DNA of 64,000 bases from Candidatus Omnitrophota bacterium (GCA_030650425.1 JAUSED010000008.1:132554-196553), one strand, 5' to 3'. Counted from the stretch's first letter, positions 36,001-48,000 are shown. Numbers: made by a program.

Positions 36001-39000
36001 ATGATTGAGAATATTCATTTTATAAAAGATCTGGGGGTGCAGAGTAAAAAAGCTTTAGAGAAAGGCGAGTTAAGAAAATTTGGCGATTTGATGAACGCGC
36101 ATTGGGAGTATAAAAAGCAGCGCTCCGGTAAAATATCCAACCCTAAAATTGATAAATGGTATAACTTGGCAGTTCAAAATGGGGCATTGGGAGGAAAGCT
36201 TATTGGGGCCGGTGGGGGCGGATTCTTAATGTTTTATGCTCAGGATAAAGTTAAGTTGCGCCATGCTATGATTATGGCTGGGCTAGAAGAGGTAAGGTTT
36301 CGTTTTGATTTTGAAGGAACAAAGTTGGTAATCCAACCATGATGCCAACAGTTTTGATTATTGCTGGTGGCGAAGGCAGGCGATTATACCCAATCACTAA
36401 GACTATCCCAAAGGCTATGATAGAATTAGCCGGGGAGCCATTCATCGCACATCAGTTGCGTATGCTTAAAAATAATGGCGTAACTCGAGCGATAATTTGC
36501 GCTGGATACCTTGGAGAACAGCTAAAAGATTATATAGAAGATGGACGTAATTTCGGCTTAAAGGTGGATTTTTCTTTTGACGGAGAGAAGCTTTTGGGAA
36601 CAGCGGGGGCCGTAAAAAAAGCCTTCTGCCTGCTTGAAGATAATTTTGCGGTAATGTATGGCGATTCGTATCTAACCGCGGATTTTGAACCCATTTCCGT
36701 TGCCTTTTTTTCAAGCGGAAAAAAAGGCTTGATGGCGGTATTAAGAAATAATGGCCAATGGGATACCAGTAATGTAGTATATGCTGATGGGAAGATCGTA
36801 AAGTATAGTAAAAAGCATATTACTCCTGAAATGAAATATATCGATTACGGATTATTGTTTTTTAGAAAAGAGGCCTTTGCTGGAATAGCTGAAAACCAGG
36901 TTTATGATTTGGCCGATTTATGCAGGGACTTGATAGAGAAAAATCAGTTGGATGGCTACGAAGTTGAGCAACGGTTTTTTGAAGTGGGTTCTTTTAAGGG
37001 TTTGGAAGAAACTAGAAGTTATTTAGAAAAATTAGGGAGTAGCCATGTCTAATCAAATTAATCTAGATAGTTATATCGATAGATATTTTTCACAAGCTAC
37101 GCAGATAACCCAGGGAGTCGATAAAAAAGCTGTCGAAGCTACGATTAAGGTTTTACTTGAAACCAAGAAATGGGAGGCAGGGTGATGAATTTTAATATGA
37201 AATGGGAGAGTATTAAATGATGTCTGGAGCTATTTTTCTTGATCGGGATGGGGTAATCAATCAATTAGTTTATAATCCTAAAACTAAAGAATATGAATCT
37301 CCTCTTTCTGAGAAAGACCTAAAAATTATCCCACGGATCTTTAGGCCGCTTAAAAAGCTTAAGAAAAAAGGTTTTTTACTTTTTATAATATCAAATCAGC
37401 CCAGTTACGCTAAAGGCAAGACCACTTTGGAAACATTATGTAAAATACATAAACTATTACATAGGAAGATGGCTGGTAAGGGAATAGTATTTAGCGAATA
37501 TTTTTATTGTTATCATCATCCTGAGGGAGTGGTTAAAAATTATTCTAGAAAATGCCTCTGTCGTAAACCTAAACCGTATTTTATCCTTAAAGCCAAGAGA
37601 AAATATGGGCTGGATATGCAGCAATCGTGGTTTATAGGGGATCAAGATTGTGATGTGCTATGTGGACAGGCTGCCGGAATTAGGAGTATTCTTATACAAG
37701 AAAGGCGTTCAAAAAATAAAAGAGGCCAAAGCCAGCCCGATGCTTACGTAGGTAGCCTGGATGAGGCCGTAGGTATAATTTTAAAACGAAACAATATGAG
37801 GAGTTAAACATGTTTAAGAGAAAATACTTCAAAATAAAGATTTTTGCTGATGGAGCAGATGTAGGAGCCATGAAAAGAGTTCATAAAGAAGGAACGGTTC
37901 AGGGATTTACCACTAATCCTACTTTAATGAGAAAAGCCGGAGTTGATGACTATGAGTTATTTGCCCGTAGCGTTTTAAGAGAAATTAAAGACTTACCCAT
38001 ATCGTTTGAGGTGTTTAGCGATGAATTTGAACAGATGGAGAAGGATGCCCGTAAAATAGCCAAGTGGGGGGCAAACGTTAATGTTAAAATTCCGGTTACT
38101 AACACTAATGGCGAATCTTCTCGCGCGTTAATCAAGAAACTTTCTGCCGAGGGAATTCCGTTAAATGTGACCGCTATTCTGACGGTTGAACAGGTAGAGG
38201 ATGTGATCGCGGTATTGTCGAAAAAAACACCGAGCATTATTTCTGTATTTGCCGGGAGAATTGCTGATACGGGAAGAGATCCTGTTGTTTATATGAAGAA
38301 AGCGGCGGCGATTGTTAAAAATAACCCTTGCGCTAGTTTATTATGGGCTAGCTCGCGGGAGTTGTTGAATATTTTTCAAGCTGAATCCGCAGGGTGCCAT
38401 ATTATTACTGTAACCGATGAGATTCTCAAGAAAATTATTCTTATAGAAAAGGATTTAATGGATTTATCTTTGGATACAGTAAAAATGTTTTACAAAGATG
38501 CTCAGTTGGCAGGGTATAAAATATAATTTTTTATAAGGAATGAATGATAAGTTTAATTATTGAAATTTTATTAGTATCGGTAAGTTCGTATTTATTTGTT
38601 GCGCGTTTATTTCGTACACGTATTTTTACTGAATTTGTTTTAATTTGGTTTTTATTGTTTTTTGGCCAAATAATCCTGGTTGAGCTTTCTTTAGGTGCTA
38701 TTGGTAAACTATATCTATCGAATGTGTTTTTTGCTCACTTCCTTATTTTTTTAATAGCTTTACTATCTTTTCAACCTAAGCAGGCAGTTAATGCAATAAA
38801 GCCTGATATAGAATTATTTTTTAAGTATAGATTATTACTTTTGGCTCTTTCAGTTTTTATATGTTTTTTTTCAGTAAAGACTTTCGTTAATCTGATTAAT
38901 CCTCCCATATCTCCCGAGAGCCTGCAGTATCATCTTGCTTACCCAGCTGTATGGATAAGGAGCGGAAGCCTGGATAATCCAGCCTGTATATTTAACGCAA

Positions 39001-45000: not shown

Positions 45001-48000
45001 TGCTATGGGCGGGTTTAGCTATGCTAGGAATTTTCTTATGACAGGGAATCCTCTTTATCCTCTGCAAGTAAAAATATTTGGGATAACGCTTTTTAGAGGA
45101 GTGTTGGGAGGGGAGTTTATCAATAACGAGAATAATGGGTTTTCTTTAGGGAAGTTTCTTTTTCATGAAGGGGTGGGGGTAGGGTTTATTTTATACGCAA
45201 TACCTGGTTTAATACTTGCCGGATTAGGCTTAATAAAGAAAAGATCGGAGCATAAGCCGTATTTATGGTTTTTATTTATATTGATTCCATTCTTATATTT
45301 TATTTATCGATTTGAGGTTGGTGTCCCAAATATTAGATATCTCTATCCTTGGTTTGCGGTATGCTATATCTTGGTTATTTGGGGGATGTCTATTTTTACA
45401 GTTCCGGAAAAATGGATTCGGTATGGACTTATCGTATGCGTTCTTGCCTCAACAGGAGAATTCGCAAGACGCCAAGAATTAATATTTTCGTTTTTATTAT
45501 CAGTAGTATTATTCGCAATATTCCTTAATACCAATAGGATTAAGCGTTTTTTATTAGGCAGGCCTTATATAACATTCTTTATAATATTTATAGTTGGCGG
45601 TTCATTTTTACAATACCTTTATATTGATTACTCTAAAAACGAACTTAAACGTTATAATCTTTCACAAAAAAACTCTGGTTTTTGGCCTGAGGCTATTGAT
45701 GCCTGGATTTGGCTTGATCAGAATACGAGTGGGAATAATATAGCCTATGTCGGTAGGCCTGTACCGTTTCCTCTATACGGCACCAACCTTAAGAACAATG
45801 TATTTTATATCTCGGTAAACGAAGGTGAACCGTATCTGCATAATTATAAAAATGCGTGTTATTCTTGCAAGGGTGGATATGAAAATTTTCATAATGTATT
45901 AATGGAGACAAATAATTACCGAGGTAAGGCAGATTATAATACTTGGCTGAGAAATTTAAAGGTAAAAAATACGAACTTTCTTTTTGTCTATTCGTTGCAC
46001 CAAATAAAAGGCATAGATTTTCCTATTGAGGATGGCTGGGCTAAAGCGCACCAAGAAATATTCAGTCAGGTATTCACTAACAACACAATACATGTTTATA
46101 AAATAAGATGAAATTATCGATAATAGTTCCGGCGCATAATGAAGAGGATAATATTGGAAGTCTTATCGATAAGATCGGGCTGATTTTGAAAATTGATTTT
46201 GAATTATTGGTGGTTAACGACCATTCCTCTGATTCTACAACAAGGATTGTCCTTGAAAAAGCTAAGCTCTTCAATAATCTTCGGTTAATTGAAAACAAAT
46301 CAGATGCGGGATTTGGTAACACATTACGGACAGGATTTGCTAATGCTTCAGGAGATTTTATTTTGCCTCTTATGGCCGATCTTTGCGATGATTTAGATAC
46401 GATTAGTATAATGTATGAAGAAATTAATAAAGGCTATGATGTGGTTTGTGGTTCTAGATACATTAAGGGGGGCGCTAGGATCGGAGGTTCTAATTTAAAA
46501 GGAATTTTGTCGTCTTTAGCTGGATGGAGCGCGTATTATTTATTAGGCATATCCACACACGATATTGCCAACGCTTTTAAGATGTATAGGAAAAAAGTTA
46601 TCGATAGTATTGATATTGAAGCAAAAGGTTTTGAGATATCTATGGAATTACCACTTAAAGCTTACTACGCGGGTTTTAAAATAACGGAAGTGCCTACGGT
46701 GTGGCGTGAAAGAAAAAAAGGTAAATCCAGTTTTAGAATGTTTAATCTAGTTCCCAATTATTTGAAGATTTACCTTTGGGCAATTAAGAAAAGGCTACTA
46801 AAACTAAAATAAAATGCAGAAAATTAAAACTGTAATATTATGCGGTGGCAAAGGAACGCGGATGGGTAAAGATGAGATACCTAAGGTTTTATTACCGGTA
46901 GGAGGTAAGCCGATACTTTGGCACGTAATGAATATTTACTCATATTTTGGATTTAATGATTTTATACTATGTTTAGGCTATAAAGGCGAGAAGATAAAAG
47001 AACGTTTTTCGGGCTTAAAGAAATGGAATATAGAATTTGCTGATACCGGAGAGAATGCCAATACAGGCGAAAGAATCAGAAAAGTCAGGAAGTATATAAA
47101 AGGAGATTATTTTTTTGCCACTTATGGGGATGGGGTTGCGGATATTAACCTGCATAAGCTTGTTAAATTCCATCAAAGACATAAAAAAACCGCTACCATT
47201 ACCGTAACCCGGCCTCTTTCTCAGTTTGGTATTGTTGGGGTAGACTCGCATAGCCAAATTGTTACGCATTTTAAGGAGAAGCCTATTTTAGACCATTGGA
47301 TAAACGGCGGATTTTTTGTCTTTAATCAAGATGTTTTTAGTTATCTTGAAGAAGACGATATATTGGAAAAAGACAGTTTTAAACGTATACTAAAAGATAA
47401 AGAGCTTAACGCTTTTAAACACAGAGGATTCTGGAGATGTATGGATACCTATAAAGACAATCTTGAATTGAATGAACTTTGGGAGAAAAATAAAGCTGCG
47501 TGGAAAATATGGGAGGAGTGATGAATGTTTGGAGAAACAAGGTTATCTTCATAACTGGCGCAAACGGCTTCTTGGGGTCGCATCTGGTAAAAAGGTCGCT
47601 TTCTCATGGAGCAAAGGTTATTGTGTTGATAAAAGAAGATATTTCCTTTTCATTGTTTAAGATTGAGAAAATAGGGAATAAATCCAAGATTTATAAAGGG
47701 GATTTGTTAAATAATAAGCTCATAAATTCTATATTTAGGGATAACAGGATCGATGTTTGTTTTCATATGGGGGCTCAAACCATTGTGGGCATAGCTAATA
47801 ATTCGCCTGTAGCTACATTTAAATCTAACATTGAAGGGACTTGGAATATGCTTGAAGCAGCCAGAGCCTTTGGGGTTAAGGCTATGGTTGTAGCCTCAAG
47901 CGATAAAGCCTATGGAGAGCATAAAAAGCTTCCTTATAAAGAAGAAGCGCCTTTAATTGCCCTGCATCCTTATGATGCCTCTAAGACTTGCGCTGATATC

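Follow-up and report, generated by a model that had tools for sequence, protein, structure and literature searches.

Two paralogous GT-C-type membrane proteins associated with radical SAM and methyltransferase genes in an envelope-glycan locus of Omnitrophota

The window analysed here, a 64,000-nucleotide stretch of a metagenome-assembled Candidatus Omnitrophota genome (GCA_030650425.1, JAUSED010000008.1:132554-196553), encodes two large paralogous membrane proteins, termed A and B, which flank the genes of a B12-binding radical S-adenosylmethionine (rSAM) enzyme and three class-I methyltransferases (MTs). We consider it fairly probable that both proteins act in the inner membrane as GT-C-type glycosyltransferases (ArnT/PMT/STT3 type), which transfer a single sugar from a polyprenyl-phosphate carrier to a periplasmic envelope glycan. 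What the analysis established is the fold of the proteins, their conserved residues, their gene neighbourhood and the type to which the partner family 2 glycosyltransferases (GT2s) belong; we infer the donor chemistry, the acceptor, the point of methylation and the pairing of each GT-C protein with its donor. Within the PMT_2/GT39-like GT-C clan, A and B constitute a branch that is divergent and has hardly any annotation.

Sequence, fold and family placement of A and B

Both proteins are deposited at NCBI as "hypothetical protein" (A, Q7K98_04295; B, Q7K98_04320; 100% identity each), on a contig of 288 kb. An earlier note, made by reading the DNA alone, had described them as duplicated membrane proteins of about 700 residues, and indeed the open reading frames (ORFs) and lengths are those listed in Table 1, and the two proteins are full-length paralogs that align end to end with 232 of 710 positions identical (33%, E = 2e-100). 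The sequence blocks pointed out in that note are also found in A and B, namely FLADIGEVPFYI / FLADLGQVPFYI and TGNPLFP / TGNPLYP. No similarity between A and B was detected at the DNA level, and the duplication is considered old because no DNA-level repeat is shared.

The main alignment comprises 52 sequences, 51 from the B clade together with A of the window. Invariant residues, in B numbering, are D189, P228-N229-x-F231-K232-Q233, D240, K280, N339, P343, E379 and R435-Y436, in addition to Y138-H139. The column of B D134 is occupied by Asp in 51 of the 52 rows, the sole Glu being that of the window A. The motif WDDLNYHF, by which the acidic loop had been recognised, is present at residues 133-140 of B, but absent from A, which reads SPESLQYHL and bears its acidic residue at E125. 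The corresponding positions are retained in an alignment of 42 A-clade sequences (D/E125, D191, K234, D243, K283, N343-P347, E386 and R446-Y447), with the acidic position of the loop being Asp in 37, Glu in three (the window A among them) and Gly in two; given this conservation within its own clade, A is probably active as an enzyme. Distant full-length relatives, which share 24-29% identity with both A and B, retain D-x3-YH and GNPxxP. The D-x3-Y spacing is presumably closer to that of ArnT (…PDETRYAE… in E. coli; DExRY) than to that of PMT (DE-x-H), a resemblance that we take as a lead and not as a test.

A structure was predicted for B only, by AlphaFold2 from an alignment of B, A and 50 homologs, and has a mean pLDDT of 86.7 and a pTM of 0.91. 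Structural similarity search using Foldseek returned STT3, ArnT (TM-scores of 0.45/0.55), PglB, ALG9 and Pmt4, and all 18 matches at E ≤ 0.001 are GT-C enzymes. In the model, the multi-pass membrane domain of B is superposable on solved GT-C enzymes, as is typical of the GT-C_A class. The GT-C fold suspected in the earlier note is accordingly what the prediction gives, and neither a transporter nor another non-glycosyltransferase fold was seen.

The model also refines the topology. Hydropathy gives 13-14 hydrophobic segments, close to the 13 transmembrane (TM) helices counted before, but the AlphaFold model has ~16 membrane helices; likewise, the C-terminal soluble domain, put at 200 aa in the note, spans ~150 aa in the model. 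The acidic loop does exist, but it comes after the fourth helix and not after the first, as the canonical GT-C TM1 starts only after three additional helices at the N terminus. In B, this canonical TM1 corresponds to residues 105-127, the acidic loop to 128-184 and the C-terminal α/β domain to 544-692. Topology was derived from the model helices and the positive-inside rule. It suggests that the N and C termini both lie outside, and that the acidic loop with D134 and the C-terminal domain are both on the periplasmic side, consistent with the periplasmic location proposed earlier for the acidic residue. With the GT-C_A class, B also shares a conserved acidic residue that this topology puts in the first long extracytoplasmic loop behind the core TM1; the C-terminal periplasmic α/β core domain is a feature of oligosaccharyltransferases (OSTs). 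Altogether, the modelled architecture resembles an ArnT/PMT-like core to which three helices at the N terminus and a C-terminal domain of the OST kind are added.

The earlier note could not place the two proteins in a named family. They can now be placed in the PMT_2/GT39-like GT-C clan via distant relatives, overlapping the Pfam family DUF8201 (PF26626). Three distant relatives pass the threshold of Pfam PMT_2 (PF13231), namely P0269 (33 bits), P0280 (32.5 bits) and P0348 (44 bits), one of which also passes that of PMT, and six of the 52 family members match PMT_2 at E < 0.01; at the sequence level, the PMT_2 link of A and B is transitive only, running through such distant relatives. NCBIfam gave no match for A or B, and sequence methods by themselves come close to failing here. 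Two relatives carry the NCBI label "glycosyltransferase family 39 protein", and a cluster look-up of ten distant relatives yielded one useful name, GT39, from candidate division CSSED10-310. Precomputed DUF8201 matches are found on four B homologs with 43-45% identity to B (P0057, P0069, P0078 and P0087), and also on distant relatives of A and B. Judged from these matches of their homologs, DUF8201 is probably the curated family nearest A and B. An exhaustive profile search collected 891 clusters at 50% identity with E ≤ 1e-30, and 4942 with E ≤ 1e-10.

Conserved neighbourhood and partner synthases

All 59 ORFs of at least 150 aa in the window are closely packed on the + strand. Nearly the whole window is an envelope-glycan supercluster, which extends as far as the MGDG-synthase-like gene (59792-60883), with priA and fmt beyond it. 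Synteny was compared in related loci, 84 of genomic and 79 of metagenomic origin, in which ORFs were mechanically called; the loci were retrieved by short peptide patterns, and the frequencies describe this retrieved sample and not the whole phylum. In 45 of 71 non-redundant B loci, the next gene after B is GT2a, and in eight it is GT2b. Within 9 kb of B, the most frequent neighbours are GT2b (50 loci), Wzy_C (45), GT9a (43) and GT9b (34), accompanied by the carbamoyltransferase (31), ManC (30), GT2c (29) and DegT (26). The recurring order reads CarbT-(MT1)-B-GT2a-GT2b-WzyC-GT9-ManC-GT9-DegT-GT2c-(SDR)-GmhB-MGDG synthase-priA-fmt, and the genes corresponding to 53946-60883 stand in the same order in most of the 71 loci. 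GmhB passes its NCBIfam cut-off (185 bits versus 178), and the two GT9 proteins are heptosyltransferase-like but below cut-off. B and GT2a are part of a vertically conserved operon across Omnitrophota, which resembles a lipopolysaccharide (LPS) core operon.

Table 1. Features in and around the A-B region of the window
Feature	Coordinates	Strand	Description
GT2z	28796..29782	+	Full-length PgfS/ArnC-type polyprenyl-phosphate-sugar synthase, two C-terminal TM helices
Nine sugar-nucleotide/tailoring genes between GT2z and A	29646..38526	+	Pfam, NCBIfam
A	38544..40649	+	Predicted GT-C fold membrane protein, 701 aa, accessory paralog (A clade), acidic residue E125 in the first extracytoplasmic loop
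MT1	40646..41362	+	Class-I SAM methyltransferase; Pfam Methyltransf_31/23/11; 4-bp overlap with the end of A
B12-binding rSAM enzyme	41378..42775	+	Class-B type; Pfam, CPVNCLFC cluster motif
MT2	42796..43365	+	Class-I methyltransferase; Pfam Methyltransf_23
MT3	43368..44033	+	Class-I methyltransferase; Pfam Methyltransf_11; 1-bp overlap with the start of B
B	44033..46111	+	Predicted GT-C fold glycosyltransferase, 692 aa, conserved backbone, ~16 TM helices, D134 in WD[SD]LNYH loop
GT2a	46108..46812	+	Soluble polyprenyl-phosphate-sugar-synthase-like GT2, 234 aa; 4-bp overlap with the end of B
Glucose-1-phosphate cytidylyltransferase-like and CDP-glucose 4,6-dehydratase-like pair	46814..48492	+	NCBIfam, below cut-off
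GT2b	48508..49185	+	Second soluble polyprenyl-phosphate-sugar-synthase-like GT2 of the backbone
Wzy_C protein (O-antigen-ligase family), then 383-aa 9-TM protein	49190..51560	+	Wzy_C Pfam 74 bits
GT9 heptosyltransferase-like, ManC, second GT9, DegT, GT2c, GmhB, MGDG-synthase-like GT28	53946..60883	+	Pfam

This conservation bears on the origin of the region. The earlier note had taken 38544-46812 for a self-contained island with a GC content near 30%, compared to the low 40s further downstream. The segment is mildly AT-rich, as its GC content of 34.8% is lower than the 39.7% of the remaining window and the 41-43% of the 3' end, yet the difference is smaller than that estimate. Horizontal acquisition of an AT-rich island with a self-contained decoration module would fit the lower GC content, that of MT2 being the minimum of the window (29.8%), as well as the patchy distribution of A, the rSAM gene, MT2 and MT3 among genomes. 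We nevertheless hold it to be very unlikely, as B and GT2a keep the same position in the majority of the B loci sampled from other Omnitrophota (71 loci), and the listed homologs of A and B that carry an organism label are all from Omnitrophota or from mislabelled metagenome-assembled genomes. Neither tRNA genes nor flanking direct repeats were found in the window, and a Pfam scan of its ORFs detected no integrase, transposase or other mobility genes. Moreover, comparable GC dips occur at 17-25 kb of the window, and part of the dip is expected from composition alone, because membrane proteins are rich in Phe, Ile, Leu, Lys and Asn. The module is therefore not self-contained, B and GT2a belonging to a syntenic backbone, and it extends beyond the limits drawn before, since the likely partner synthase of A, GT2z, lies outside them.

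The upstream part of the locus is variable. At 15602-21324, where the GC content is as low as that of 38544-46812, the window encodes a NeuB-type synthase, a CMP-sugar cytidylyltransferase, a WbqC-like protein, a PIG-L deacetylase and MptE-like proteins, which suggest a nonulosonic-acid pathway of the legionaminic or pseudaminic type.

The GT2 proteins encoded with A and B are of the polyprenyl-phosphate-sugar-synthase type, as in three-component glycosylation systems where such a synthase accompanies the GT-C enzyme. GT2a, described before as a soluble DPM1-like GT2, is devoid of hydrophobic segments, and its closest solved relatives are the Pyrococcus Dol-P-Man synthase (PDB 5mlz, E = 1.6e-23 over 1-219), three ArnC structures and GtrB, in agreement with that description; on these grounds, it is probably the donor synthase for B. 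GT2b shares the same set of PDB relatives (Dol-P-Man synthase, ArnC) and scores 121.6 bits against NCBIfam AglJ, below cut-off. Against NCBIfam, GT2z scores 231 bits with PgfS (positions 6-308) and 152 bits with ArnC, neither of which reaches the cut-off; it is probably the donor synthase for A. It immediately precedes A in other genomes, and here nine inserted genes intervene. In the case of a distant DUF8201 relative, the gene that follows encodes a GT2 in fusion with the GtrA_DPMS_TM domain.

Proteins of the A clade form an old orthologous group of their own, with more than 120 clusters with 44-77% identity, which are from Omnitrophota wherever labelled. In 45 A loci, the upstream neighbour of A is a GT2 in 21 of the 26 loci where it is labelled (GT2z-like in 10), often with a DegT-type aminotransferase before it. 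Two loci, L085 and L086, have an A-type protein as the only GT-C at the backbone position, adjoining an rSAM ortholog of 61-64% identity. Directly upstream of it lies an NTP-transferase::GT2 fusion (L085, 6421-8004, 527 aa; L086, 6509-7996, 495 aa), a single polypeptide that would both activate the sugar and load the lipid carrier.

Candidate sugar sources are encoded on both sides. The nine genes between GT2z and A comprise a second B12-rSAM, an SDR epimerase/dehydratase, an NDP-sugar dehydrogenase, an SDR, a GFO oxidoreductase, an HddA-like kinase, a nucleotidyltransferase, a GmhB-like phosphatase and a transaldolase; the NDP-sugar dehydrogenase (309 bits) and the transaldolase (337 bits) are above their NCBIfam cut-offs, the HddA-like and GmhB-like proteins below. 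The stretch 28796-38526 looks like a GDP-heptose-type pathway, in which a GmhA isomerase was not recognisable. The CDP-glucose-type pair downstream of GT2a scores 246.7 bits (cut-off 300) and 185.5 bits (cut-off 278) in NCBIfam, and is found beside B or A in many loci. Together with the heptose-type genes upstream of A, this pair is a possible source of the transferred sugars.

Two further parts of the backbone deserve description. The 383-aa protein at 50409-51560 has nine hydrophobic segments and a loop after the first TM helix reading SDSVDYLETAQ...FYRTPGYP, and aligns to positions 10-154 of the 160 of PMT_2 at E = 0.0016 (19 bits, below cut-off). Directly following the Wzy_C gene, it may represent a small third GT-C protein by sequence, with orthologs of 42-68% identity in L018, L103 and L107; as a relative of the A/B family it was rejected, hhalign against the family profile giving a probability of 0.3%. 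In addition, three proteins are encoded in the segment 51557-53939. A 602-aa carbamoyltransferase comes first, and is followed by a membrane protein of the SxtJ type (PF19588, E = 2e-7) at 53367-53765 and, at 53781-53939, by a DUF5989 peptide (E = 9e-26); we take the trio to resemble sxtI/J/K of the saxitoxin cluster. Across Omnitrophota loci, the carbamoyltransferase mostly shows 64-78% identity (one match, 45%), and often lies one or two genes upstream of (MT1-)B. A carbamoylated envelope sugar may be a trait of the phylum.

The rSAM and methyltransferase genes between A and B

Pfam domains at 40646-44033 support the order MT / B12-rSAM / MT / MT that had been read between A and B. The rSAM enzyme shows the features of class B, namely the B12-binding domain PF02310 (68.6 bits) and the radical SAM domain PF04055 (83.3 bits), both above threshold, in addition to the CxxxCxxC motif as CPVNCLFC. 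It does not fall into a characterised methylase subfamily, since its best NCBIfam matches (ApyD, PhpK, ladderane rSAM and HpnJ) reach 134-145 bits against cut-offs of 360-750. AprD4 is the closest of its PDB relatives, which also include TsrM, TokK and CysS. Among solved structures, MT1 resembles class-I methyltransferases of a generic kind as well as phosphoethanolamine N-methyltransferases, which is uninformative.

The association of GT-C, MT, B12-rSAM and small GT2 genes, noted for this locus, recurs in other genomes, including those of distant relatives. Where the gene preceding B could be labelled (32 of the 71 B loci), it is MT1 in 11. Downstream of A, the 32 labelled loci have MT1 in 19, a B12-rSAM in four and a SPASM rSAM in four, and an rSAM ortholog lies within 7 kb of A in 19 of the 45 A loci. 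Orthologs of the rSAM enzyme with 60-83% identity adjoin A or B in other genomes, those of MT2 (67-84% identity) lie between A and B in L095, L096 and L098, and those of MT3 immediately beside B in L005, L006, L066, L124 and L165. The interval between A and B varies: MT1 with B12-rSAM is commonest, other versions being MT, SPASM-rSAM and MT2, or rSAM, MT1 and MT3, or nothing at all (L094). Moreover, the contig of the PMT-positive distant relative P0348 (L087, 949 aa) carries four rSAM genes, three of them of the B12 type, together with one MT and five GT2 genes, as well as a 1070-aa DUF8201 protein. With the same gene mix around distant relatives, the association is recurrent beyond the A and B clades.

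The four genes might nonetheless be unrelated to the sugar of A and B, tailoring nucleotide sugars of the O-antigen or capsule, or a lipid, from a region that tolerates insertions. Other B12-rSAM/MT genes are found away from A and B (5248-7325 and 29646-31208), the content of the A-B interval differs between genomes down to the empty interval of L094, and the top NCBIfam matches, all below cut-off, include lipid-modifying rSAMs (ladderane-type, HpnJ). These observations make the explanation conceivable, and we rate it as somewhat unlikely. The rSAM ortholog and MT1 adjoin A or B in many genomes despite differing neighbours, stop and start codons overlap between A and MT1 and between MT3 and B, and the same gene mix surrounds a distant relative, all of which argue for a functional tie to A and B.

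Radical SAM genes are also found elsewhere in the window, with two further B12-binding enzymes, one of them with a class-I MT, and two SPASM-type enzymes, all among glycosyltransferase genes (5248-7325, 11868-12941, 24253-25347 and 29646-31208), a density unusual for a polysaccharide locus. Among the papers listed, full-text literature searches found neither a description of the A/B family nor a system that ties a B12-rSAM or class-I MT to such a GT-C protein, and no such link for DUF8201; a term search of a preprint on complete Omnitrophota genomes found no discussion of a GT-C / B12-rSAM linkage.

Proposed function, known systems and significance

We propose that small DPM1/ArnC/GtrB-like GT2s load a sugar on undecaprenyl phosphate at the cytoplasmic face, that some flippase turns the lipid-linked sugar over, and that B, in some lineages also A, transfers it to an envelope glycan in the periplasm. 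GT2a would serve B and GT2z probably A, an old paralog that would add a second, lineage-variable decoration. By analogy, adjacency to DPMS/ArnC/GtrB-like GT2s suggests that the donors of A and B are linked to polyprenyl phosphate. MT1, the B12-rSAM, MT2 and MT3 would tailor in the cytoplasm, most likely methylating or radically altering the sugar moved by A and/or B, either as a nucleotide sugar or as a lipid-linked sugar before flipping; being soluble and dependent on cytoplasmic cofactors, they would have to act before that step. As B is fixed beside core-type genes whereas the O-antigen-type part is variable, its acceptor is more likely a conserved structure such as lipid A-core than a repeat unit that varies. 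The presence of GT9, ManC, GmhB and Wzy_C genes in the same conserved order provides an LPS context, in which the conserved glycan modified by B would probably be LPS.

Several observations weigh against this proposal. A has no match to PMT_2 and B reaches 20.1 bits against a cut-off of 26.1, the family profile found no match at E ≤ 10 among all PDB sequences, and the window A carries Glu instead of Asp at the key position of the loop. No flippase of the GtrA, SMR or MATE type was found near A and B among the 59 large ORFs and two small ORFs in 53365-53946, a scan that left out other small ORFs, including any GtrA-sized (~120 aa) protein; the only flippase-type gene in the window is that of a Wzx-like MOP protein at 8736-10184. 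AprD4, the closest solved relative of the rSAM enzyme, is a dehydratase and not a methylase, and the enzyme is therefore no more than a candidate methylase; gene adjacency is the sole link of the MT and rSAM products to the transferred sugar, and the gene labels in the sampled loci are best BLASTP matches to window proteins, on contigs of which many are truncated. In addition, the C-terminal domain and the full-length Foldseek ranking resemble OSTs, the donors of which are polyprenyl-diphosphate oligosaccharides and not monophosphate sugars. A and B could accordingly be OST-like (STT3/AglB/PglB), transferring a preassembled glycan from undecaprenyl diphosphate to a protein or another acceptor, with the GT2s helping to build that glycan. 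The OST motif WWDYG is not present at the start of the C-terminal domain, where the B clade has SGFWP[DE]A and the A clade EAWQxD, and we regard an OST-like function as quite unlikely.

Another explanation keeps the polyprenyl-phosphate sugar but changes the acceptor, with A and B as protein O-glycosyltransferases of the PMT/GT39 type that modify secreted or surface proteins instead of LPS. The PMT_2 family name does not imply a protein acceptor, as the family also holds ArnT-like lipid A transferases, and the conserved neighbours are of the LPS-core type (GT9, GmhB, Wzy_C and ManC). Compared to PMT/GT39 enzymes with Ppm1/DPM1, A and B lack a MIR domain, have ~16 instead of 11 TM helices, lie in an LPS-type context and fail the Pfam thresholds. 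Protein O-glycosylation is for these reasons an unlikely function.

For a single-sugar GT-C transferase, the closest functional analogues are the three-component Gtr-type/GT136 systems and ArnC/ArnT, membership being incomplete, with synthase and GT-C present and the flippase not found. The likeness to ArnT/ArnC (GT83), which transfer L-Ara4N from Und-P to lipid A, does not extend to a sequence-level match, PMT_2 being sub-threshold, and the ArnA formyltransferase and ArnD deformylase of the Arn pathway are missing. ArnD is itself a precedent for tailoring at the lipid-linked stage. Three-component periplasmic glycosylation has been described, together with the tailoring of lipid-linked donors, for which DprE1/E2 and Citrobacter epimerases are precedents (PMC11127046). 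As in GtrA/GtrB/GtrC of Shigella and Salmonella and ORF15/ORF14/ORF12 of Citrobacter (GT136; PMC11127046), a GT2-type synthase is encoded beside a GT-C protein in an LPS or polysaccharide locus, an acidic residue is conserved in the first periplasmic loop of the GT-C, and some of these systems bear auxiliary enzymes altering the lipid-linked donor. By contrast, no flippase gene was found beside A and B, GT2a and GT2b lack TM helices, and the GT-C proteins of the A/B type carry three additional helices at the N terminus as well as a C-terminal domain resembling that of OSTs. Moreover, B is a conserved core gene and not a serotype-converting accessory, and is associated with a B12-rSAM and class-I MTs.

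To a specialist, an LPS locus that encodes a GT-C protein with a polyprenyl-phosphate-sugar synthase would be no surprise; the interest lies in its phylum-wide conservation and the linkage to rSAM and MT genes. In its boldest form, which we consider unlikely, the B12-rSAM and class-I MTs would act on the polyprenyl-phosphate-linked sugar itself at the cytoplasmic side of the membrane, giving a C-methylated or multiply methylated donor that the GT-C paralogs place on lipid A-core. If true, this would be a phylum-wide LPS decoration pathway of Omnitrophota unlike any described so far, and the first case in which radical SAM chemistry tailors a glycosyl donor on its lipid carrier.

The placement of A and B marks DUF8201 as a likely GT-C glycosyltransferase family, and turns "hypothetical proteins" and more than 890 related clusters at 50% identity into a testable enzyme family with the motifs WD[SD]xxYH, PNxFKQ and GNPxxP, with identified partner synthases and with a conserved operon of the LPS type. 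Omnitrophota are abundant, ultra-small and almost entirely uncultured bacteria, and to our knowledge nothing is known experimentally about their envelope. The repeated linkage of GT-C proteins to cobalamin-dependent rSAM enzymes and MTs points to unusual methylated or branched surface sugars. Sugars of this kind would matter for the recognition of hosts or prey, for phage receptors and for the chemistry of biomarkers.

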